DNA of 64,000 nucleotides from an uncultured Actinomycetes bacterium (GCA_963742735.1 CAVUMN010000003.1:416001-480000); one strand, 5' to 3'. Shown: positions 4,624 to 62,158, numbered from the stretch's first letter. A program made the numbers and translations. The notes: generated by a model not told the origin, from the letters alone.

Positions 4624-6818
4624 ATGGACGATCCCGTCGCCGATCGCCCTCAGATCCAGGCCTCGCAGGTCGTCGTCGCCGACGTCACCAGCAAGGTCCT
4701 CGCCACCAAGGAGGGCGAGACCTTCCTGTACTGCGACACCGAGGGCAATCTGGACGACCGCAAGGAGCTCGGGCTCGGCCTGTACTACAAGGACACGCGC
4801 TTCCTGTCCCACTTCCGGATGCTGCTCTCGGGGCGGGAGCCCGTCCTGCTCTCCTCGTCGTCCGAGCGCGCCTACATGTCGTACGTGGACCTCACCAACC
4901 CGGACCTGTACGAGGGCGAGGAGGTCGCGGTGCCCCAGCAGACCCTCAACGTCCGCCGGATCCGGACGATCAATGGGCGGCTGTTCGAGCGGATCCGGAT
5001 GAAGAACTACAACCCCTTCCCCGTGCGGGTCACGGTGGAGCTGTCCCTGGGGGCGCGACTTCGCCGACATCTTCGAGGTCCGCGGGCTCAGCCGGCACCG
5101 GCACGGTCGCCACGAGCCGCCGGTGGCCGAGCGGCCGGACCGCGGAGTTCGCATACACGGGGATCGACGGCGTTCGGCTTCGCACGCTGGTCGAGTTCGG
5201 GAGCGAGCCGGAGCACGTCGAGGTTCGCGGCGACGTCGTGCACGCCCGCTTCGTCGTGCATCTGTCCGGCCACCAGACGAAGCTCGTGTCGATGACGGTC
5301 GCGCCGATCGGTGGGCGAGGTCGCCCCGCCGACCATGGACTTCGACGTCGCCGTCCACGACCTCCGCCGGTCCTACGAGGACTGGGAGCGCGAATCCACC
5401 CAGATCACCACCGACAACGAGCTGTTCGACCAGCTCCTCACCCGTGGGCATCCGCGACCTTCGCGCGCTCTACACGGCGATGGACGGCGGCCACATCATC
5501 GCGGCCGGCATCCCCTGGTACGTCACGGTGTTCGGCCGCGACGCCCTGATCGACCGCGCACCAGCTCCTGATGGTGAACCCGCAGCACGCGCGCGAGACC
5601 CTCCGAGATCCTGGCCGACCTGCAGGGAACGAAGGAGGACCCGTGGCGCGACGAGGAGCCCGGGAAGATCCTCCACGAGATCCGCCGGGGCGAGCTGGCC
5701 CGGGCGGGCGCGATCCCGCACACGCCGTACTACGGCGCGGTCGACTCGACGCCCGTGGTTCCTGATCCTGCTGCGCGATGTACTTCCGCTGGACGGGCGA
5801 CCGGGAGTTCGCGAAGGCAATGCTGCCCGGCGGCCGAGGCGGCGCTGCGCTGGATCGACGAGTACGGCGACCGCGACGGCGACGGATTCGTCGAGTACCA
5901 GACGCGCTCGCCGCTGGGGCTGCGCAACCAGGGATGGAAGGACTCGTGCGACTCGGTCGTCCACGCCGACGGGCGGCTGGCGGAGCCCCCGATCGCGCTG
6001 GCCGAGGTGCAGGCCTACGTCTACCTGGCCAAGGCGCGGATGGCCGACGTGTACGAGGCGCTCGGGCGAGCGAGTCCCGCGCGGACCAGCTCCGTGGGGA
6101 GGCCGATGATGCTCCGCGCCCGGTTCAACGAGGCGTTCTGGATGGAGGACGAGCAGTACTTCGCCGAGGCCCTCGACGCCGACAAGCGGCCCGGTCCGCA
6201 CCGTCACCTCGAACCCCGGGCACGCGCCTGTACTGCGACATCATCGACCAGGACAAGGCCGAGCACGTCGCCCGTCGGCTGCTCGCAGCCCGACATGTTC
6301 TCGGGCTGGGGGATCCGGACCATGAGCAAGTCGGCCGCCGCGTACAACCCGATGAGCTATCACAACGGCTCGGTGTGGCCGCACGACAACGCGTTGATCG
6401 CGGCGGGGCTGAAGCGGTACGGGTTCCACGAAAGCCACGACCGCGGCTGGCCACGGCCATCTTCGACGCCGCCATCCACACCGACTACATGCGGCTGCCC
6501 GAGCTGTTCTGCGGGTTCACCCGGCGAACGCCGAACCGGCCGGTCGGCTACCCGGTCGCCTGTTCACCCGCAGGCCTGGGCCGCGGGATCGCCGTTCCTG
6601 CTCCTGCAGGCGATGCTCGGCGTCTCGGCCCGCGCCGCACGAGAACCTGCTCACGGTGAACAAGCCCGCACCTGCCCCCGTGGCTGAACCACGTCGAGCT
6701 GCGCAACCTGCGGGTGGGCGACAGCCGCATCTCGATCGTGTTCCGCCGCGAGGGCGAGGTCACCGGCTTCTCCCTCATCCAGAAGGAGGGCGACGTCCGC
6801 GTGGTGATGGAGGAATAA
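4624..6818 (+). CDS. Amylo-alpha-1,6-glucosidase / glycogen-debranching-type (alpha/alpha)6 glycoside hydrolase (several frameshifts)
   Basis: GLYYKDTRFLS, AAGIPWY.T.FGRD, EEPGKILHE, NQGWKDS, YNPMSYHNGSVWPHDN, RLPELFCG, PQAWAAG. Confidence 0.85.
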
Positions 6819-8379
6819 CCTCCTCCGGGCCGGCCAGGATGACCTCCCGGCCGGCCGCGAGCAGCACGTGCACCCCCCGGCCGCGAAGGTCCTCGATCGC
6901 GGAGGCGTCGAGCTCCTGAGGCGCCGTCCACCGCATGGCCGCCCAGTCCCGGCCGCCGAGGTCGAACGTCCTGCGAACCAGCTCGTCGGTGGCGGCCGCG
7001 GCGAAGGCGGCGGCGGCAACCTGGGTCGCGCTGAGCGCCGCGTCCACCCCGAACGTCGTGCGCACGCGGTCGGCCAGGACGTCGTCGAACACCCGGGCCA
7101 CGGTCCGGATCGACGGGTTCAGTCGCCGGGCCTGCACGCAGGCGCCCAGGTTCGCCAGGTCGTCGTCGGTGCAGGCGAACAGCAGCGAGGCTCGTGCGAT
7201 GCCCGCCCGCTCCAGGTTCTCCAGCAGCCGGACGTCGCCGATCAGGACCGGCGCGCGCTCCGCCACGGGGCCGGCGAAGCGGGCGTGCGGGTCGCGCTCC
7301 AGAACCACGGTGGCCACGCCCATGTCCCTGAGCAGCCGCTCGATCCGATAGCCGACCGTTCCGAGCCCGAGGATGATCGCGTGGCCCCGCATCCGGCGCG
7401 CCCGGCGCCCCATCCGGACGTCGAGCCGATTGGCGGTGGCGATCGACGCCAGCTGCGAGAACACCACGCCGACCAGCGCGGCGCTGATCAGCATCGAGCC
7501 GACCCCGAACACCTTCAGCCAGGCATCCGACTCCTCGAGGCCGGGATCGCCGAACGCCGTCCGCACGGCGGCGTAGAGCGCGTCGATCGGTCCGAGGTCG
7601 AGCGCCGCCGCGAAGACGATGACGTTGGTCAGCAGGATCAGACCGAGTCCGGCGGCGGCGTACGGCAGCAGCGTCCTCGGGCGCGGTCCGCCCCGCTCGC
7701 GTTCGGCCTTCGGTCGGGCGCGAGGCGCCGCCGGCAGGTCGGCGTCGGCGAAGGCCAGGGCCAGGACGTCGCGCAGCGGTCCCCCCACCACAGTCTCCTC
7801 GCCGGCGGGGATCTGCCCCGCGACCTCGGTGACCGGTTCCCACACGCCCGTCCCCAAGTCGCGGGCGACCAGCGCGAGACCCGCGGGGAGGGCCCGGACC
7901 CCCGACGCGCGCAGCCGGACGAGCGAGACGTCCTCGTCGCCGAGGCGCAGCGTGTGGAGGACCTCGTCGGCGAGCGCCGCGGCGACGAACGCCGGCGCGG
8001 CGAGCCGCGACATCGAGTATGCCCGGCGAAGGTTCGCCGCCTGGCCCAGCTGGGTCGTCAGGACGGGGTCGAACGATCGAACCACGAGCGGGACGCCGGG
8101 GGCGAGCGCGGTGGCGGCGAGCGACGCCTCGAGGTTCACCCGGTCGTCCTCGGACAGCGCCAGGATGCAGTCCGCGCTCTCGGCGCCCGCGGCGCGGAGG
8201 GACTCCTCCGGGTCCACCGCCGCGACCGCCACCCGAACGCGCGGGGGCAGCAGCCGCGCGAGGGACTCCGTGCCCTCCTCGGCCACGACGATGACCTCGG
8301 GGTCGCCCTGCTCCATGAGGTTGCGGGCCACCCGCACGGAGAGCCGGCTGAGGCCGAACAGCACGAAGCGGCGGTCCAT
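6775..8379 (-). CDS. TrkA-N/RCK domain potassium channel-like protein (RCK - 2TM pore - RCK)
   Basis: Start MDRRFVLFG at 8379 within ORF 6775..9738; two Rossmann-like RCK domains (ALSEDDRVNL; GLGTVG...TDDDLANL) flanking two TM helices and a degenerate pore (AVRTAFGD). Confidence 0.8.
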   Translation of the reverse strand: MDRRFVLFGLSRLSVRVARNLMEQGDPEVIVVAEEGTESLARLLPPRVRVAVAAVDPEESLRAAGAESADCILALSEDDRVNLEASLAATALAPGVPLVVRSFDPVLTTQLGQAANLRRAYSMSRLAAPAFVAAALADEVLHTLRLGDEDVSLVRLRASGVRALPAGLALVARDLGTGVWEPVTEVAGQIPAGEETVVGGPLRDVLALAFADADLPAAPRARPKAERERGGPRPRTLLPYAAAGLGLILLTNVIVFAAALDLGPIDALYAAVRTAFGDPGLEESDAWLKVFGVGSMLISAALVGVVFSQLASIATANRLDVRMGRRARRMRGHAIILGLGTVGYRIERLLRDMGVATVVLERDPHARFAGPVAERAPVLIGDVRLLENLERAGIARASLLFACTDDDLANLGACVQARRLNPSIRTVARVFDDVLADRVRTTFGVDAALSATQVAAAAFAAAATDELVRRTFDLGGRDWAAMRWTAPQELDASAIEDLRGRGVHVLLAAGREVILAGPEEVIPPSPRGRRPPSG

Positions 8380-9566
8380 CAGAGGCAGGGGCCGGTGTCG
8401 ACCTCGTTGACGTTGCCGCTGGCCTCGTTCACGCGTTCGAGGATGTCGATGGACAGCAGTGCGTAGCCGATGTTGTCGTCGGTTGTGGACGCCGCGAACA
8501 CCACCCCGGCCACCTCGCCGCTCACCAGGACGAACGGGCCTCCCGAGTTCCCGGGGCGGATCCGGGCCTGGAGCTCGTACACCCGCCGGTCGACCTTGCC
8601 CTTCCCGTAGATGTTGCGCGTCTCGGTGTTCCGTACGAGTCGCACCGCCGCGGCGCCCCTGGTCAGCGGCCCGTTCTCCGGGTAGCCGAGGACGGCGCCC
8701 TTGTCGCCACGGTCGACCTCGCGATCCAGCAGCTCCAGGACCGGCCCCGGGTTTTCCTGGACACGGAGGATCGCCACGTCCAGCCCGGCGTCGAACAACA
8801 CCGTGGTCGCCGTGACCTGGCCCTCGACGCCCTGCTCCTGGATGTACGGGTCGTCCACGCCCGCGACCACGTGGGCGTTGGTCACGATCAGCCCGTCGCC
8901 CGCGACGAACCCCGAGCCTTCCTGGATCGCGCCGCAGGCCTCGCCCAGGACCTTGACGGTGCTCCTCTCGGCGCCCTCGGCCGCGCGGGCCACCTCGCCC
9001 TGGGTCGGCCCCTTGACGGGGCCGGCCGGCGCCGGGGGGAGGCCGCTGAACACCTGCGGGAACCCGAACGTGTTCAGGAAGCTCCGGATCTGGGTGAGCA
9101 ACGAGGGCGGCGGCGGCATCAACCGGTCGAGACCTCGGACGACGACCGAGCCCTGGATCTCTCGAGAGACCGCCGGGATGGGGCCGCTGGCGAGGTTCAG
9201 CGCGATCAGCCAGGTCGCCAGGAGCACCGCGACCACCGCAACGAACGACCCGGCGGCCGAGTCGACCTTCGACAGCCGGCTGGCGCGCGCCGCGGCCCAC
9301 ACCTTCCGGCCCACGACGAAGCCGGCCGCGTCGCCGATCCCCGCGATGGCCAGGAACGTCCCGAGGGCCAGGGCCGCCTGCATCGTCTGGCTCTCCGCCA
9401 GGCCCGCGACCTTCGGCGCCAGGAGGGCGCCGAGCAGCAGGCCGGCGATGAGGCCGGTGTACGTGACCAGCTGCAGGGCCGCCCCGCGGCGGAAGCCCCC
9501 GAGGACCGCGAGCACCACGAGGCCGACGATCAGGAGGTCGACGAGGTTGAGCCCCAGGAAGGCCAT
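8379..9566 (-). CDS. marP: MarP-family membrane serine protease (CvpA-like TM domain + trypsin-like domain)
   Basis: N-terminal 4 TM helices; GSGF, TNAHVV, DVAIL, GNSGGP catalytic triad motifs; C-terminal Cys. Confidence 0.85.
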   Translation of the reverse strand: MAFLGLNLVDLLIVGLVVLAVLGGFRRGAALQLVTYTGLIAGLLLGALLAPKVAGLAESQTMQAALALGTFLAIAGIGDAAGFVVGRKVWAAARASRLSKVDSAAGSFVAVVAVLLATWLIALNLASGPIPAVSREIQGSVVVRGLDRLMPPPPSLLTQIRSFLNTFGFPQVFSGLPPAPAGPVKGPTQGEVARAAEGAERSTVKVLGEACGAIQEGSGFVAGDGLIVTNAHVVAGVDDPYIQEQGVEGQVTATTVLFDAGLDVAILRVQENPGPVLELLDREVDRGDKGAVLGYPENGPLTRGAAAVRLVRNTETRNIYGKGKVDRRVYELQARIRPGNSGGPFVLVSGEVAGVVFAASTTDDNIGYALLSIDILERVNEASGNVNEVDTGPCL

Positions 9567-9574
9567 GAGCGGGT

Positions 9575-9600
9575 ATCGTGCCACGCCCCGCGGGTACACT
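9575..9600. promoter_or_regulatory. Back-to-back -10 elements for divergent leaderless genes (marP and the metallophosphoesterase-cpgS-pgk2 operon)
   Basis: TACACT 9595-9600 is 7 nt before GTG 9608; CACGAT on the minus strand (9580-9575) is 8 nt before ATG 9566. Confidence 0.5.
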
Positions 9601-9607
9601 GGAGTGC

Positions 9608-10407
9608 GTGACGACGATCGCGCACATCTCGGACCCCCACGTCGGATCCCCGTACTTCGTGCCCAACCTGATGAACCGGGTGATCGTCGAGATCAACGAG
9701 CTCGAGCCCGACGCCGTCATCTGCACCGGCGACTTCACGACGTTCGGCTATCGCCAGGAGTTCAAGAACTGCGGCGGCGTACGTCGAGCGGATCAAGGCG
9801 CCGGTGTGGTCGGTCCCGGGCAACCACGACGCCCGCAACGTGGGCTACGTGCACTTCGAGGAGCTGATCGGTCCCCGCCACTGGGCCCAGGACGTGGGGA
9901 ACGTGCGGATCGTCGGCGCCGACACCAGCGAGCCGGACCTCGACGAGGGCCAGATCGGGCGCGAGCGGTACCCCTGGCTCGAGGAGCAGTTCGCGGTCCC
10001 CGCCGAGCTCAAGATGCTCGTGATCCATCACCACCTGATCTCGCTCCCCGGCACCGGACGCGAGCGCAACATCGTCGATGACGCCGGCGACCTGCTGGAG
10101 CTGCTCATCACGAACGGCGTGCAGCTCGTCCTGACCGGGCACAAGCACGTCCCGTACGTGTGGCGGCTCGAGGACATGTACATCGCGAACGCCGGGACCT
10201 GTTCCTCGCTGCGGCTGCGCGGACATACCCGGCCCTGCTACAACGTGATGGAGTTCGACGGCGACGAGGTGAAGATCTTGCGGCGGTACCCGTTCGGCGC
10301 GCAGACCCTCGTCGCGCACTGGTCGCTCTCGACCGGCCGAGCAGCACTACCGCGAGCTCGACACGCTGATGCGTCGAGGCACGGAGGCTCCGATCCGCGC
10401 GGACTGA
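9608..10407 (+). CDS. Calcineurin-like metallophosphoesterase, CpdA/Icc-like (frameshifts near 9770 and 10335)
   Basis: HISDPH, TGD, PGNHD, HHH, GHKH metal-binding motifs. Confidence 0.88.
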
Positions 10408-10440
10408 GCCTCACCGGAACGACAGGAAGGGCCCATCTCC

Positions 10441-11786
10441 GTGACCAAGCGTCATCGTGCTCGTCGACGGTGAGCACTACCCACCCGTGACCCGCTGGGG
10501 GATCGAGACGGCCCGTGACCGCGGGCTCGAGCCCGTCGCGGTCCTGCTCGTCGGCGGCCGGGAGAAGCTGCCCGCCGACGGCTCGCTCGACCTGGGGGAC
10601 GTCGCGGTCGAGTCGACGGAGGCGCCGCTGACCGCCCTGCCCGAGGCGATCGACCGGCTGCGCCCCGACGCGGTGCTCGACCTCTCGGACGAGCCGGTGC
10701 TCGGGTACCGCGAGCGGATGGAGCTCGCGTCGATCGCCCTCGCCCGGGGATGTCCCTACCTCGGGGCGGACTTCCGGCTGGACCCGCCCCCGCTCGATCC
10801 GCCCCCGCCGATGCCCACGCTCGCGGTGATCGGGACCGGCAAGCGCACCGGCAAGACCGCGATCGGCGGACACCTGGCGCGACTCGCGAAGGCGGCGGGA
10901 CGTCGTCCCGTGGTGGTGGCCATGGGCCGCGGCGGCCCGCCCGAGCCCGAGGTCGCCGAGGGCTCGCTCGACCTGGAGCGGCTCCGCGAGCTGTCGCGCG
11001 AGGGGCGGCACGCGTCGAGCGACTACCTGGAGGACGCCCTCACGGCCGGGGTGACCACGGTCGGGGCCCGCCGGTGCGCGGGCGGGCTGGCCGGGGCTCC
11101 CTTCGCCTCGAACGTTCCCGAGGCCGTCCGCGAGGCCGAGCGGCTGGGCGCCGGACCCGCTGGTGCTCGAGGGCAGCGGCGCCGCCATCCCGCCGGTGGC
11201 GTGGGACGCCGGGGTTCTGGTCGCCCCCGCGTCGCTGGACCCCGAGTATCTGGGGGATACCTGGGCCCGTACCGACTGTTGCGATCGGACCTGTTGGTCA
11301 TTACAATGGTGTCCGGCCCGGGTTCCGGGCCGGCAAGCCTTTCCGCCCTCGTATCCCACGTCCACCGGGTCCGTTCGGATGCCCGGATCGCCATCAGCGA
11401 CTTCGTACCGACGCCGCTCGGCGACGTGGAGGGAAGTCGAGTGTTCTTCTCAACCACCGCATCCCAGCACGGCGCCGATGCGCAGATCCGTTCCCTGGTG
11501 TCGCGCCACGGCGTGACCGTGGTCGGGTGCAGCCGGACGACTCGCCGATCGGGCGGGACTGGCCGAGGACATCCGCAGCGCGCCGGAGTACGACGTCCTG
11601 CTCACCGAGCTGAAGGCCGCCTCCGTCGACGTGGCCGCGGAACTCGCGGCGGAGCGGGGCGCGGAGGTGGTGTTCGTGGACAACCGGCCCGTGACGGTGC
11701 CGGGGCCCGGCGACGGCGAGGTCGACGATCTGCTGATGCGAGACGCGTTCGCCTGGCGGACGAGCGGGCGAAGGAGCGCAGCGTGA
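10441..11786 (+). CDS. cpgS: Cyclic 2,3-diphosphoglycerate synthetase (several frameshifts)
   Basis: LVDGEHYPPV, DLSDEPV, GTGKRTGKTA, MGRGGP.EPE, HASSDYLEDA, RRC.GGLAG, LEGSG, LTELKAA.VD - signature blocks of archaeal CpgS. Confidence 0.88.
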
Positions 11787-12755
11787 CGGTCAAGACGAAG
11801 AAGCGCCCCACGCACATCGTGATCGCCGATCGCGAGCACGGGCTGCCGTACTCGAAGGGGCTGATGGCCTCGCAGCTCATGGTGACCGGGCTGTCGCCGT
11901 ACCGCTCCTACCAGGTGGCGGAGCGCGTGGAGGAGCGCCTGCTCGAGCGCGGCAAGGCGCGCGGTCACCAGCGCCGAGCTCCAGGCCCTCACCGTCCGGG
12001 TCCTCGAGGAGGTGGCGGGGGACCGCTACGCCAAGAACTTCGTGCGCTGGCAGGAGGTCGCCGCGCTCGACGTGCCGCTCGTGATCCTGATCGGCGGCGC
12101 GACCGGGGTCGGGAAGTCGACCATCGCCACCCAGCTCGCCGCCCGGCTCGGCATCGTCCGCGTCGTGGCCACCGATGCGATCCGCGAGGTGATGCGCTCG
12201 ATGTTCAGCTCGGAGCTGATGCCCACGCTGTACACGTCGTCGTTCGACGCCGGACTCGGCGCTGCGGGAGCCGCCGCCGAAGCCCGCCGACCCCGTCATC
12301 GTCGGGTTCCGCGAGCAGACCACGGCGGTCGCCGTCGGCATCCACGCGCTGATCGAGCGGGCCGCTACCGAGGGCACCAGCCTCATCGTGGAGGGCGCCC
12401 ATCTGGTTCCCGGCTTCGTGGACGTCGCGCCGTGGCAGGAGCGGGTGCTCGCCGTCGAGCTCGTGGTTACCGTCGAGGACGAGGACGTGCACCGCGGCCA
12501 CTTCGCGGCGCGGGCCGCGGACGCGGCCTCGCGCCCGTTCGACCGCTACATGAAGGGCTTCCGCAACATCCGCAGGGTGCAGAAGTACATCAAGAGCCAG
12601 GCGCTCTCCCACGGCGTGCCGGTCGTCCCCAACTACAACTTGGACCAGGCGATCGCCGCGGTCGTCGACCTGGTCATGGAACGCGCCACCGAGCGGGTCG
12701 GCCGAGCGAAAGGCACGGACGACTCGCCGACGGCCGACGAGCCGGAGCGCGATAG
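11783..12755 (+). CDS. pgk2: 2-phosphoglycerate kinase with N-terminal ATP-cone (frameshifts; 3' end uncertain, as sequenced it reads in frame into tal)
   Basis: LPYSKGLMA ATP-cone; PLVILIGGATGVGKSTIA P-loop; TDAIREVMR; EGTSLIVEGAHLVPG; adjacent to cpgS. Confidence 0.88.
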
Positions 12756-12768
12756 GGGGAGGGACCCG

Positions 12769-13438
12769 ATGAGGCTGTTCCTGGACACCGCCAACATCGA
12801 CGAGATCCGCGAGATCAACCGATGGGGCGTCCTGCCGGGCGTGACCACGAACCCGTCGCTCCTGGCACGGGAGATGGGCGACGTCGAGAAAGCGTGGCGT
12901 CTGATCCTCGAGGAGGTCTGCCAGGGCGACGTCTCCCTCGAGACGACCGAGCCCGAGGCCGAGGCGATGTACGAGCAGGGCAAGCACCTGGCCTCGCTGG
13001 GCGCCGAACGCCGTCGTGAAGGTCCCGATGACCCCCGACGGCCTCACGGCCGGCAAGCGGCTCACCGAGCGACGGGCATCCGGATCAACGTGACCCTGGT
13101 GTTCTCCCCGGCGCAGGCGATCCTGGCCGCCGAGATCGGCGCCTACATCGTCTCGCCGTTCCTCGGGCGGCATCGACGACGGCGCCGCGGACGGGATGCA
13201 CGCGCTCAGGCAGATCTGCGACATCTATGATGTGCAGGGCTACGAGACCAACGTCCTGGCCGCCTCCCTGCGCCACCCCATGCACGTCGTGGAGTCCGCG
13301 CTGGCGGGCGCCGACATCGCGACGATGCCGTACGACGTCTTCACCAAGCTGGTGAAGCATCCACTCACCGACAAGGGACTCGCGCAGTTCGAGGCGGACT
13401 GGGAGAAGCTCCAGAAAGACCTGAAGGAAGGAGCCTAG
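12769..13438 (+). CDS. tal: Transaldolase / fructose-6-phosphate aldolase family (frameshifts)
   Basis: [46 protein letters not shown]. Confidence 0.9.
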
Positions 13439-13439
13439 T

Positions 13440-15095
<1,656 letters not shown>

Positions 15096-15106
<11 letters not shown>

Positions 15107-15587
15107 GCTCGTCCAGCCAGCCGCGCACCTGCCCGTGGTGCCGGCTCCAGGCTCGCCACACGCCCTCGGCCCATCGCTCGACCAGCTCGACGTGTCGCTC
15201 GGCCGTCCGGGCCGCCCGCACGTCGAGGACGGTCAGGTCGCCGTTCGGCTCCGGGATCTCGAACCGCGGGTACTCGCGGTGCGCGAAGCGGCCGATCGTC
15301 CGGGTGGCCACGTGCGGGGGCACGCCGCCCTCGAGTTGGAGGCACAGGCTCATCAGGTGCACCGCGACCGACTGATTCTCACGGCGACCGGGCTCGCCGG
15401 GGTGCTGCACCGCGTAGGTGTCGACGCTGCGCTGGGCCAGCACGCCGTAGCCCGGCTCCTGCATCTCGCGGCCGCGGATCTCGCCGAACGCCTCCCAGCA
15501 CCCCCAGTTCGCCGTCATGTAGTCATGGGGGACGGCCGGGCCCGGGTCGGTGATCGCGCCGCATCCTGGGCACGGGCTAGGCTTCAT
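15096..15587 (-). CDS. DUF5946-like protein
   Basis: CPGCGA...GCWEAF...VDTYAVQHPG...SVAVHL pattern. Confidence 0.6.
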
Positions 15588-58590: not shown

Positions 58591-59294
58591 AGGCCGGCCA
58601 GGCGCCGGAGCGCCTCGACCTTCATCAGCACGTACCGCCGGCCCTCGCGGCGGACGATCCGGCGCCGGGCGAGATCCGACAGGATGCGGGTCACGTTCTC
58701 GCGGCTGCCCCCCGACAGGCTTGCCAGGTCGGCGTGGGTGACCTCGGACGGAACCATCGCGCCGTCCTCCGGGAGCTCGTCGAAGCTCGGGCTCACCAGG
58801 CCGAGAAGGCGTTTCGCGACCCGGCCTTTGAGGTCGAGGAACAGCAGGTCTTCGACGAGGGCGTCGTGGGCCTGCACCTGGCGGCTCAGCGCACGGAGCA
58901 GCGCCCGCGACGCCGACGGGTTCGACTCGAGGAAGGCGATGAACACCTCGGGCTCGACGGACCACGTGCGGCTGTCGTCGACGGCGAGCGCCGTGGCCGT
59001 TCGGGGCTGCTCTCCGAGTGACGAGAGCTCCCCGAAGAACTGCGGCTGGTCGATGGTCGTGTGGAGCTGGCGATGCCCGCTCGCGGACAGCGAGGAGATC
59101 TCGATCCGACCCTCGTCGAGGAAGAACACGGGGCCGGGAGGGTCGCCCTGGTGAAACAGATACGTCCCGCGCCGGTACTGGTGGACCACCCCGGCCGCGG
59201 CTAGGTCTGCCGCCGCGGCCTGGGGGAGACCGGCAAGGAGCGGCTGCTCGGACATGCGCCGTCCCAGCTGGCGCGCGGAGGTCGGTGGAGCCAT
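58587..59294 (-). CDS. Crp/Fnr-family regulator with intact cNMP pocket and CRP-type recognition helix
   Basis: LFHQGD, FFGELS...PRTAT, HTH SRENVTR; TAGGCT -10 7 nt before ATG 59294. Confidence 0.92.
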   Translation of the reverse strand: MAPPTSARQLGRRMSEQPLLAGLPQAAAADLAAAGVVHQYRRGTYLFHQGDPPGPVFFLDEGRIEISSLSASGHRQLHTTIDQPQFFGELSSLGEQPRTATALAVDDSRTWSVEPEVFIAFLESNPSASRALLRALSRQVQAHDALVEDLLFLDLKGRVAKRLLGLVSPSFDELPEDGAMVPSEVTHADLASLSGGSRENVTRILSDLARRRIVRREGRRYVLMKVEALRRLAGL

Positions 59295-59329
59295 GCGCGC
59301 GAGCCTAGCGAAGGAGAAGCCGAGACGCG

Positions 59330-59357
59330 AAGGAGCCCGGCTCGCGCCGGGCTCCTT
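59330..59357 (-). terminator. GC-rich hairpin after the repeat-peptide gene
   Basis: AAGGAGCCCGGC-TCGC-GCCGGGCTCCTT, perfect 12-bp stem 24 nt past the stop; weak U-tract. Confidence 0.75.
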
Positions 59358-59381
59358 GCATTGATGTGTGGAGCTTTGGTG

Positions 59382-59657
59382 TTAGGCCTTGCTCGCCCGG
59401 GTCGCCCGGGTCGCGCGCGTCGCGCGAGTCGCCCGCGTGGCGCGGGTCGCACGCGTCGCCCGCACCGCCTTGGTGGCGCGCACCGCCTTCGTGGCACGCA
59501 CGGCCTTGGTGGCCCGCACCGCCTTCGTCGCCCGCACGGCCTTGGTGGCCCGCACCGCCTTGTTCGCCCGAACCGCCTTGGCCTGGGAGGCCTTGTGGGT
59601 CGTGCTGCCGGTCGTGGCCTTGGCCCCCGGCGCCTTCGGCTGGATCTTCTTCTCCAT
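59382..59657 (-). CDS. 91-aa basic tripeptide-repeat peptide (26-aa leader-like N-terminus + KAVRAN-(KAVRAT)6-(RAT)6-RASKA); candidate precursor peptide
   Basis: GGAGGAGG SD, ATG start, TAA stop, downstream hairpin; repeats vary at synonymous codon positions while the peptide is conserved. Confidence 0.8.
   Translation of the reverse strand: MEKKIQPKAPGAKATTGSTTHKASQAKAVRANKAVRATKAVRATKAVRATKAVRATKAVRATKAVRATRATRATRATRATRATRATRASKA
59385..59579 (-). repeat. Degenerate 9/18-bp coding tandem repeat
   Basis: Units such as gcccgcaccgccttggtg and gtcgcccgg on the + strand. Confidence 0.9.
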
Positions 59658-59726
59658 CGTCTGTCACCTCCTCCGTGATGTGGATTCTCTCTACGCGAAT
59701 GCTCCGCCCGACGCCAAGGTTCGCGC

Positions 59727-59766
59727 TGTGTCGCGCGTCACCGTTCGGAGTGTGTTGCTCGTCACC
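59727..59766. promoter_or_regulatory. Two tandem CRP-like boxes upstream of the repeat peptide
   Basis: TGTGT-CGCGCG-TCACC (59727-42) and TGTGT-TGCTCG-TCACC (59751-66), each 8/10 to TGTGA-N6-TCACA with identical deviations. Confidence 0.72.
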
Positions 59767-59778
59767 TTCGCCGGAGGG

Positions 59779-59988
59779 TCAGTCGAGCTCGGGGAGGTCC
59801 AGCGGGTCCGGGCGCGGCGAGCAGGCGCCGCAGAACAAGGCGTCCTCGACGACGAGCGCCTTGCGGACGTTGCCGCTGCGGAACAGCTCCAGGATGTAGG
59901 GATGCTCCTGGGCATGGTCCTCGCACACGCCCCGGCCGCAGAATCGGCAGGAGCCCACGGCGGTCCTTCGACAGTGCCAGCAGTCCAC
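59779..59988 (-). CDS. Small Cys/His-rich zinc-finger protein (B-box/DUF2180-like)
   Basis: CWHC...CRFCGRGVCEDH...FCGAC; GAGGAG SD. Confidence 0.75.
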   Translation of the reverse strand: MDCWHCRRTAVGSCRFCGRGVCEDHAQEHPYILELFRSGNVRKALVVEDALFCGACSPRPDPLDLPELD

Positions 59989-60001
59989 GCGCTCTCCTCG
60001 C

Positions 60002-62158
60002 TCAGTGTTCCCAGGATCGGTTGGGTGAACTATGCGGGTTCAGGGTCCCCCGGCGAAATGCCCGCGCGACCAGCTTCCGAAACGCCCGCCGCTCGAGCCT
60101 GAAGGCGCGAACGGGGGTCTTGGCTCTGATGGTGGCGGTGCGGGGGACGTCGAGCAGCAGCGCCACCTCGCCGAAGTAGTCGCCCGGGCCCAGGGTGGCG
60201 ACCACCTTACGGTTCTGCACCACCTCGAGCCGGCCCGAGGCGATCGCGTAGAACGCGTCGCCGACCGCGCCCTGGCGCATCACCACCGTCCCCGGCGGGA
60301 AGCTCTCCCAGGAACCCTCCTGCCGGAGCGACGCGAGCTGGTCGGGCTCCAGGTGGGCGAACGCCGGGAGCCCCCGGAGCTCCGCCGCCTCCTGCAGTGT
60401 GGGCGCGAACTCCGGGATGTTGATCATGTCGGCGAGCAGGCGCTCGAAGGAGCTCTTGTCCACCTCGAAGACCTCGGACTCCTCCACCGCCACGACCGAG
60501 GCCGTTCGCGGCGCCGACGCCAGGAGCCCGAGCTCGCCGAACGAGTCGCCACGGCTCTGCAGCCGGATCGTTCGCCGTTCGCCGGTCTCGGGATCCTCCT
60601 CGACGATGGCGAACGTTCCCTTGCGCACCACGTAGAAGGCCTCGGCCCGCTCGCCCTGACGGATCACGGGGCGCCCCCGGGGCACGCGGCGAAGCCCGAC
60701 GCGGCCGGCGACGTCGTTCAGGACGTCCACCGGGACGTCGTCGAAGACCGGAAGCGCGTCGATCAGCTGCGCGGCCTCGACCCTCCAGTCGCGCTCGACC
60801 CGGAACCGGAGCCGCTTGAGCAGCCGCTTGATCCCGCGCACGGCCGCGCGGACCACGGCCACGCCCGCCCGGATGAGGGGGCCGCCGACGAACAGCGCGA
60901 GCGCCAGAAGCACGAGCCGTCCGGTGAGCCCACCCCGCCACAGGCCGCGGACGAGACCGCCGAACACCGACTCCCAGAAGAAGTAGGCCGCGTAGAACGA
61001 CAGGACGGTCACGGCGAACCCGACGATCCCGTAGATGGCGAGACCCCACTCTCGACGGGTGAGGCCCTGGCGCTTCCACAGCCGCCGCGGGAGCTCGTGC
61101 CGGACGAACGCCAGCGACCGGGGTCGCAGGTCGGGGATCTGGATCCCGTCCGCCAGGATCCAGTAGCCGTCCAGCTCCAGCAGGGGAAGGCTGTTGATGA
61201 ACACGTTGAGGTAGGCCAGGACGGTGAACTTGTAGAGGAGCGGGGTGATCGCCGCCTCAGGCATCGCCCAGACCAGGGCGGAGAAGGTCCCCGCGACGAT
61301 CAGCCCGGCGTACGGGCCGGCGGCCGACTGCACGATCCGCTCGCGCTGCTCGAGCATCAGCCCGTCCGACGATTCGATGAAGAACGCCGGCGAGCCGAAG
61401 AAGATGAAGAAGCCGGCCGCTTTCACCCGGCGCCCGTAGTGCACCAGGACCAGGGCGTGGCCGAGCTCGTGGATGAAGATGTGCAGCATCTGCAGCCCGA
61501 GCAGGATCAGCGCTCCCAGGGCGATCGACTCGGCGCCGATCGTGAACTGCCCCGACTGCACGTTGTCCAGGAAGGCCATCAGCCCGACCATTACCACGAG
61601 CAGCGAGACGACCTGGGCGCGGACGGTGAAGAGCTGGCGGAACCCGTGCTCGTAGAGCCACCGGACGAAGCGGTCGGCGGTCTTCCACTCAAGCCGCAGG
61701 GTGGTGACGAACTCTCGCGCCCGCGCGCCCAGCGCCGTTCGAGGATGCAGGGCCTTGTCCAGGGCGCCCTCGGCGTCGAGGTAGGTGGTGTCGAGGAAGC
61801 CGCCGACGTGCAGCTGGTACACGAGATCGGCCACGCCGGAGAGCTCCAGCTCGCCGGACTCCTGGAACCGTTCCACGACGAGCTCACGAACGGTGCGGGT
61901 GCCGTCCATCAGCGGGAGCAGGTCCGCCTCGTTCCAGTCGAGCCGGTAATGCAGGAGCTCGCGAGGGTTGGCGATCATCGCGTAGTTGTCGCCGAGCCGG
62001 ACCTCGAACCGCCGGATCTCGATGTCGTCCATGAGACGCGGGCGAAACTCACCGAGGTCGGTCAGCTCATGGAGCCGGTCCCACACCCCGACGTGGTGAC
62101 GGGAGCGGCGATGGAGACCATCGGAAACGCTCGCCCAGACGTCGAGCGCCTCCGGCAT
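60002..62158 (-). CDS. PqqD/RRE-like domain + M50 intramembrane zinc peptidase + two cyclic-nucleotide-binding domains
   Basis: [15 protein letters not shown] winged helix; [19 protein letters not shown]; FGELGLL..PRTASV and FGEVALL..PRTATI; TGATG overlap with the upstream gene. Confidence 0.85.

Follow-up and report, generated by a model that had tools for sequence, protein, structure and literature searches.

A conserved metallophosphoesterase gene beside cpgS in Actinomycetota is a candidate for the cyclic 2,3-diphosphoglycerate hydrolase gene

The 64,000-nt stretch CAVUMN010000003.1:416001-480000 of an uncultured Actinomycetes bacterium (GCA_963742735.1), here called the window, encodes a metallophosphoesterase (MPE) as the first gene on its strand in the order MPE-cpgS-2PGK-tal-rho. 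The genes cpgS and 2PGK code for a cyclic 2,3-diphosphoglycerate (cDPG) synthetase and a 2-phosphoglycerate kinase (2PGK). Judged by sequence and genomic context, the MPE is the best gene candidate so far for a cDPG-degrading enzyme. Its family, clade A of the tree described below, may hydrolyse the cyclic pyrophosphate of cDPG and thereby open the ring to 2,3-diphosphoglycerate (2,3-DPG); we give this reaction a probability of about 0.45. A role in cDPG turnover in the wider sense, be it ring opening or hydrolysis of 2,3-DPG or another ester of the pathway, is rather probable. The literature searched assigns no gene to the cDPG hydrolase, as a reading of this stretch from the sequence alone (the sequence-only reading) had claimed, and the phrase 'cDPG hydrolase' itself was not found there.

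The protein is a member of the MPE superfamily (PF00149/PF12850). Pfam PF00149 matched two pieces of the assembled gene (positions 9608-9769 with E 3.9e-6 and 27.9 bits; 9771-10334 with E 6.8e-9 and 36.9 bits) and an intact homologue, P0004 (72 bits), all above the gathering cut-off of 21.5 bits. An alignment of 36 sequences showed invariant motif residues at S23, D24, H26, G56, D57, G86, N87, H88, D89, H155-157, H193 and H195 (P0004 numbering). These include all seven dimetal ligands: D24, H26, D57, N87, H155/156, H193 and H195. The window encodes the corresponding motifs SDPH and TGD in the first piece and GNHD, HHH and GHKH in the second. Further blocks are specific to the family and invariant or nearly so (SEPD, G129, G132, P162, G165, DAGD and W200). 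Arginines are conserved around the motif loops (R91, R133, R166, R168, R217, R219), and clade A has three extra ones of its own (R39, R64, R240). This set would suit a polyanionic substrate but is no proof of one.

The AlphaFold2 model of P0004 (predicted local distance difference test 92.9, predicted template modelling score 0.90) has the two-sheet beta sandwich of the MPE fold. A Foldseek search with this model yielded 434 matches in the PDB (E<=0.001). The listed ones have the MPE fold, among them purple acid phosphatases. The closest solved folds, Rv0805 and GpdQ, share 20-24% identity. The model begins at strand 1 and contains no helix longer than 14 residues, as judged by the model itself and not by a dedicated membrane-helix predictor. 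The MPE is thus predicted to be a soluble two-metal phosphoesterase of about 265 amino acids. The family is compact, with 201 clusters (50% identity) at E<=1e-30 in a library of 1.84 billion representatives. The ESM Atlas returned only the protein's own family, as Actinomycetota clusters with PF00149/PF12850. No curated NCBIfam model claims P0004.

The MPE gene is closely tied to cpgS. Of 41 genomes of the order, including 5 unpublished ones, 38 had cpgS and 37 the MPE. The MPE was located directly upstream on the same strand in 35 of the 38 cpgS-positive genomes. Two genomes had cpgS only (G026, G034), one had only a 51% identical copy elsewhere (G007) and one had neither gene (G027). A larger set of 120 related loci combined the best 80 by cpgS alignment with 40 picked across families; at least one pair (L092 and L097) is from the same genome. 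The best 80 all carry the names Actinomycetota or Ca. Aquicultor, or are plain 'bacterium' or 'unidentified bacterium' metagenome-assembled genomes (MAGs). At least 900 nt upstream of cpgS were available in 111 loci, and the MPE was present there in 103 (102 by the upstream interval and L121 with overlapping BLAST ends). The median gap was about 60 nt, over GC contents of 0.38-0.72 and cpgS identities down to 41-50%. The Aquicultor loci have an MPE that is better conserved than cpgS (62-63% versus 44% identity). The eight scorable loci without an upstream MPE (L062, L087, L093, L094, L098, L109, L110, L120) had only a thrB, secA/prfB-type, SppA-like or CvpA-protease gene ahead of cpgS. No replacement hydrolase was recognised there by reading of open reading frames (ORFs), without a Pfam search. 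Fusion proteins of MPE and cpgS, such as P0130, were considered as Rosetta-stone evidence and rejected; by eye, they are gene calls through a frameshift.

The association extends across the phylum. Among 401 Actinomycetota genomes (13 unpublished; E<=1e-10; lists compared by hand), 228 had the MPE, 227 had cpgS, 224 had both, 4 had the MPE only, 3 had cpgS only and 170 had neither. Most discordant genomes have a visible cause: cpgS is split over two contig ends in G295 and lies at a contig end in G222 and G306, the copies in G149 and G340 belong to the sister clade, and G177 gave a weak generic match. G058 is the sole genome of the sample with cpgS and truly without the MPE. An apparently functional pair of cpgS and 2PGK was present in 227 of the 401 genomes, in records named Actinomycetota and Ca. 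Aquicultor. The sequence-only reading would have fallen with a lack of co-occurrence, and in bacteria it holds up strongly on this point: the MPE was directly upstream in 35 of 38 cpgS-positive genomes and upstream in 103 of 111 loci, and 224 of the 227 genomes with cpgS in the phylum sample also had the MPE. These counts show a tight association of MPE and cpgS and not many independent events, because the genomes are kin and adjacent genes are lost together in assembly gaps. In family f19, the 2PGK gene is located about 0.9 Mb from the MPE-cpgS pair (G051), and in five f19 genomes it scored above the NCBIfam cut-off. The MPE stays beside cpgS.

The cpgS-adjacent copies form a lineage of their own. 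In a quick maximum-likelihood tree of 128 rows, with Shimodaira-Hasegawa-like approximate likelihood ratio test (SH-aLRT) support only, 41 of 41 fell into one clade of 63 rows, clade A (SH-aLRT 88). The other 22 rows of clade A are database representatives whose genomic context is not known. No clade A member was found in the cpgS-negative genomes of the 401-genome sample. The non-adjacent copies group in a sister clade of 16 rows (SH-aLRT 89). Three of them, 47-50% identical to the MPE, stand head to head with a small cyclic-nucleotide (cNMP)-binding-domain gene, in 3 of 3 loci (PF00027, E 2.5e-20 to 3.6e-22). By this context, the sister clade MPE is a candidate for a true cyclic-nucleotide phosphodiesterase.

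Archaeal relatives were all placed outside clade A and the sister clade. The outside groups comprise Methanobacterium (40% identity), Methanobrevibacter (42%), Altiarchaeales, Micrarchaeia, Wukongarchaeota and a WOR-3 bacterium. A protein search with the Methanobacterium-type MPE found only Methanobacterium or Methanobacteriaceae among the few named matches. In 4 of 7 metagenome loci (L142-L145), BLAST matches to this MPE fall apart into two or three pieces, which may reflect frameshifts or decay. A further outside group of the tree (24 representatives) consists of tandem proteins of about 500 amino acids with two MPE domains (P0128, P0131, P0133, P0135, P0138 and 19 more). Their first domain has the full ligand motifs, and those of the second are degenerate; where named, these proteins come from Methanomicrobia or Thermococci archaeon MAGs. 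Within clade A, the second copy of family f19 (L153-L157) adjoins a conserved gene in 4 of 5 loci. We take this neighbour to resemble the SAM hydroxide adenosyltransferase (DUF62) family. L153 has a third MPE copy, of the sister clade, 2 kb from the second.

A cDPG hydrolase of this family may work by the two-metal mechanism of the fold. The seven ligands (the D and H of DxH, the D of GD, the N of GNHD, an H of HHH and both H of GHxH) would hold two metal ions that activate water. A metal-bridged hydroxide would then attack one phosphorus of the cyclic pyrophosphate, yielding 2,3-DPG. The leaving group would be a phosphate monoester, and this chemistry would fit the superfamily: LpxH, ADP-ribose pyrophosphatase-Mn and ApaH are members that cleave the same type of bond in pyrophosphate diesters. 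R91, R133, R166/R168 and R217/R219, together with R39, R64 and R240 of clade A, may bind the trianionic substrate. The promoter position would suit a leaderless mRNA, on which the MPE would be transcribed together with cpgS and 2PGK. Synthesis and breakdown would form a pair for a store of phosphate, carbon and charge, and to encode both enzymes of a store in one operon is a familiar arrangement.

Several observations weigh against this assignment. The synteny and co-occurrence come from kin and are non-independent events. Some cpgS-positive lineages do without clade A (f9, part of f16, f66, f25 and genus g22); in f9, cpgS was present in 25 of 26 genomes, and clade A was not adjacent in the 2 loci examined. 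Family f19 holds a second, recent clade A copy away from cpgS, 72-76% identical to the adjacent copy. The association expected across archaea and bacteria held in Actinomycetota; it was not seen in the archaeal loci examined, 7 of 7 Methanobacterium-type metagenome loci having neither cpgS nor 2PGK in flanks of 1-10 kb. The literature searched contains no report of cDPG in these bacteria or of the cDPG pathway in Actinobacteria. According to the review PMC1224877, the methanogen hydrolase is bound to the membrane, and K+ and phosphate inhibit it; the clade A enzyme appears soluble by the model, and peripheral binding would be possible. A hydrolase co-expressed with its synthetases carries the risk of a futile cycle. 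The nearest solved relatives are phosphodiesterases, Rv0805 for cyclic nucleotides and GpdQ. The location of the sister clade beside cNMP-binding genes suggests that the ancestor may have acted on cyclic nucleotides. Finally, this genome (3.08 Mb) has 44 matches to the class III cyclase domain PF00211 (42 above cut-off) and 16 to the cNMP-binding domain PF00027, and it has no gene that is more Icc-like than the MPE. Within the window, 58920-60691 (-) encodes three of these cNMP-binding domains.

The MPE could instead be an ordinary class III cyclic-nucleotide phosphodiesterase like CpdA, Icc or Rv0805, whose place before cpgS would be inherited gene order without a shared pathway. The wealth of cNMP-signalling domains in this genome favours such a role, as does the neighbourhood of the sister clade. 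Source annotations name the relatives CpdA or Icc, the motif set is the same, the best folds are Rv0805 and GpdQ, and the MPE is the genome's best match to the CpdA model. The match itself is poor. PRK11148 has a curated cut-off of 225 bits, and P0004 reached 38.1 bits and the window piece 23.3 bits in a genome scan, so the protein is not a CpdA member by this model. The sequence-only reading had called it a CpdA/Icc-like phosphodiesterase with all metal ligands; the ligands are indeed complete.

The distribution points in the same direction. It was compared in the same 401 genomes with PF00211, thus for class III cyclases only and not for other classes. The MPE is kept in families in which no such cyclase was found: f21 (MPE 27/28, cpgS 28/28, PF00211 0/28), f33 (10/10, 10/10, 0/10), f13 (3/4, 3/4, 0/4) and f23, f26 and f30 (PF00211 0/3 each). 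Cyclases are infrequent in f31 (16/16, 16/16, 2/16) and f19 (31/31, 31/31, 6/31). Conversely, MPE and cpgS are both missing where cyclases are universal, in f14 (0/21, 0/21, 21/21) and f27 (0/10, 0/10, 10/10). Five small genomes of 98-100% completeness were inspected: four lack PF00211, three lack PF00027 and the adjacent pair was verified in four. Three of them (G045, G140, G265; 99-100% complete, verified pair) are without PF00211, and G140 and G265 are also without a cNMP-binding domain. The occurrence of the MPE tracks cpgS rather than class III cyclases. This speaks against a role as cyclic AMP phosphodiesterase, the outcome that would have overturned the sequence-only reading. A cyclic-nucleotide phosphodiesterase is improbable.

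A different enzyme of the same pathway would share the operon, co-occurrence and clade evidence. A 2,3-DPG phosphatase could return 2- or 3-phosphoglycerate to central metabolism or clear excess 2,3-DPG, and the MPE may likewise act on another phosphorylated intermediate. Phosphomonoesterases occur in the superfamily, with purple acid phosphatases among the fold matches, yet those proteins that come nearest to the MPE in sequence and in fold are diesterases. In f19, the MPE stays with cpgS while the kinase forming 2,3-DPG is encoded about 0.9 Mb away, which leans towards cDPG itself as the substrate. We consider this alternative unlikely. The MPE could also be a broad phosphodiesterase or pyrophosphatase for another substrate, such as a glycerophosphodiester or a nucleotide-sugar or dinucleotide pyrophosphate, and be near cpgS for regulatory or historical reasons. 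GpdQ as best profile match (E 8.2e-22) and the lack of a curated NCBIfam model fit such an enzyme. It would leave unexplained why clade A was found only in cpgS-positive genomes and why the spacing is tight across GC contents of 0.38-0.72, and we consider it rather unlikely.

The MPE gene is located exactly at 9608-10407 (+), as first proposed. That span silently takes in two frame changes: its 800 nt are not divisible by three, and the assembled gene has no intact ORF and runs through three frames, with one extra base at 9770 and one at about 10335 (Table 1). The three pieces map in order onto P0004 with 87-90% identity and one surplus base per join. They contain no in-frame stops or other decay. 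Three-frame reading of 10400-13300 showed repeated frame changes in cpgS, 2PGK, tal and rho as well, and over 9600-15100 insertions of 1 nt occur in all five genes at roughly one per few hundred bases. Contigs of four public soil-metagenome runs were aligned to the window. They are 90-99% alike and hence come from relatives; the same strain is not proven. Base 9770 is missing from 5 of 5 covering contigs (3 runs), and further 1-nt differences from the contigs lie at 10450, 11151/11153, 11538, 11958, 12250, 12699 and beyond. The source genome consists of 5 contigs with a completeness of 88.9%. With insertions throughout the region and contigs of relatives without the 9770 base, the frame changes are most likely assembly errors, apparently systematic ones.

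A pseudogene inactivated by two frameshifts would look like the assembled MPE. The same damage would then have to be accepted for essential neighbours such as rho, and the extra bases are absent from the contigs of relatives at 9770 and at the frame changes of cpgS and 2PGK. With pieces free of stops and so similar to an intact homologue, a pseudogene is very improbable. Intact orthologues of 262-280 amino acids (about 265) are plentiful: 6508 proteins at E<=1e-5, of which the 120 listed are 71-99% identical. Since the insertions are likely errors and intact orthologues abound, the gene is treated as functional in the organism.

Table 1. Features of the MPE locus in the window, and loci of the sister clade
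Feature	Position	Strand	Remarks
CvpA and trypsin-like protease gene, divergent upstream	8379..9566	-	PF02674, PF13365
-10-like hexamer TACACT, candidate leaderless or near-leaderless promoter	9595..9600	+	7 nt 5' of the MPE GTG
MPE piece 1	9608..9769	+	54 codons; GTG start; IAHISDPHVG (DxH), CTGDFT (GD); 88% identity to P0004 (tblastn)
Extra base, +1 frame change, probable assembly error	9770	+	absent in all 5 covering contigs
MPE piece 2	9771..10334	+	188 codons; VPGNHDARN, SEPD, HHH, PGTGRERN, DAGD, GHKHVP motifs
Second extra base (approximate), +1 frame change	10335	+	from frames and tblastn; outside contig coverage
MPE piece 3	10336..10407	+	23 codons and TGA at 10405-10407; clade-typical tail QHYRELDTLM
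cpgS, cyclic 2,3-diphosphoglycerate synthetase	10441..11786	+	several 1-nt frame changes; E 2.9e-49 to the solved synthetases 9sxb/8oru
2PGK, ATP-cone and P-loop kinase	11783..12768	+	frame changes; NCBIfam PRK04220/PRK12337 matches on pieces
tal, transaldolase/Fsa-type gene, followed by rho; conserved downstream block	12769..13438	+	PF00923
Sister clade loci	L133:1414-2436, L134:1111-2175, L135:1414-2301		cNMP-binding neighbour

The MPE leads its operon, as the sequence-only reading had stated: its stop and the cpgS GTG at 10441 leave a spacer of 33 nt, and the upstream gene is divergent. The intergenic space towards this CvpA/protease gene is at most 41 nt, and the same gene is upstream in 46 of the 120 loci. 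No terminator-like site was found in 9300-15300. A leaderless promoter had also been proposed. Related loci have a TAGACT or TACACT hexamer 6-10 nt ahead of the start codon, and in 76 of 104 loci a TANNNT hexamer begins within one shared range of 6 positions; some genomes occur twice in this set and one is unpublished. A scan with the sigma-70 consensus gave nothing at the MPE start and did not list TACACT. The conserved placement of the hexamer would fit a leaderless or nearly leaderless mRNA.

The synthetase encoded downstream looks functional. L003, an intact orthologue, gave an end-to-end alignment with the cDPG synthetase of Methanothermus fervidus (8oru, E 2.2e-90) and keeps the stretches GTGKRxGKT, GGTEK, HAASD and TELKAAAVDV, as mapped by eye on the alignment. 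The ligand residues given in PMC10690619 are K145, R146, K149, T150, E45, K46, D208, E404 and K406. K145, R146, K149 and T150 are located in the first stretch, E45 and K46 in the second, D208 in the third, and E404 and K406 in the fourth. An intact 2PGK orthologue has the ATP-cone. In the window, the assembled 2PGK end runs into the tal ATG without a stop codon (12748-12795). Contigs show several 1-nt differences at 12699-12752, so this tail is probably misread. The order tal-rho-rpmE-prfA was found in relatives. Two genes upstream of the operon, 6778-8379 (-) encodes two TrkA_N (RCK) domains with a hydrophobic middle and resembles a potassium channel. It was considered as a link to K+ and rejected, because it is absent from 120 of 120 related loci.

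In Methanothermobacter, cDPG is described as a major solute containing carbon and phosphorus and as a counter-ion for K+ (PMC4302986), and it may be a store of carbon and phosphate whose degradation is regulated (PMC1224877). In 2023, an abstract restricted cDPG exclusively to hyperthermophilic archaeal methanogens (PMC10690619). It is under development as a commercial extremolyte (PMC12136491). A wider picture is tentative and, at present, somewhat doubtful. A complete cDPG cycle of 2PGK, cDPG synthetase and a dedicated soluble clade A hydrolase may be an ancient trait, passed on vertically through much of the Actinomycetota and present also in mesophilic lineages of the soil. There, cDPG would be a mobilisable store of phosphate, carbon and charge and not a thermoprotectant. 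The MPE would be the long-missing hydrolase, descended from a cyclic-nucleotide phosphodiesterase. If these bacteria make cDPG, its role, regulation and turnover are much wider than thought. Clade A provides a named candidate with intact orthologues for an orphan enzyme, so that a single protein and a single substrate would suffice to test the question. For strains that produce cDPG, and for assays, a hydrolase gene would be of interest.

Among characterised enzymes, Rv0805 of Mycobacterium tuberculosis, a class III cyclic-nucleotide phosphodiesterase (2hy1, 3ib7), has the same dimetal MPE fold and the same D-x-H/G-D/G-N-H-D/H/G-H-x-H motifs. It is the best Foldseek match to the P0004 model (E 7.4e-17, TM-score 0.64/0.78; profile E 1.3e-19). 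Clade A shares 21-24% identity with Rv0805 and differs by a C-terminal tail and by conserved blocks of its own, which include an invariant W behind GHKHVP. It is also set apart by its genomic link to cpgS and by a distribution that does not depend on class III cyclases. GpdQ, the glycerophosphodiesterase of Enterobacter aerogenes (2zo9, 2dxl, 3d03; Foldseek E 4.9e-16), has the same fold and acts on small anionic phosphoesters with a three-carbon backbone, like the substrate proposed for the MPE. Identity is 20-21%, and no glycerophosphodiester uptake genes were seen beside the MPE in the loci read. CpdA/Icc of Escherichia coli has the superfamily and ligand motifs in common with the MPE and lends its name to the public annotations of relatives, in spite of the low score of the MPE with the CpdA model.

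The closest functional counterpart would be the cDPG hydrolase activity of Methanothermobacter thermautotrophicus, which was reportedly described biochemically by Sastry et al. in 1992. The proposed reaction is the same, the conversion of cDPG to 2,3-DPG on the degrading side of the cDPG cycle. Among the archaeal sequences examined, none belonged to clade A. The operon also has a parallel in its layout. In E. coli, ppk and ppx form an operon for a polyphosphate kinase and an exopolyphosphatase. The protein families and the compound are unrelated to those of the MPE operon, and the analogy is one of logic only: a single operon encodes the enzymes that build and hydrolyse a phosphate store, as is proposed here for cpgS and the MPE.

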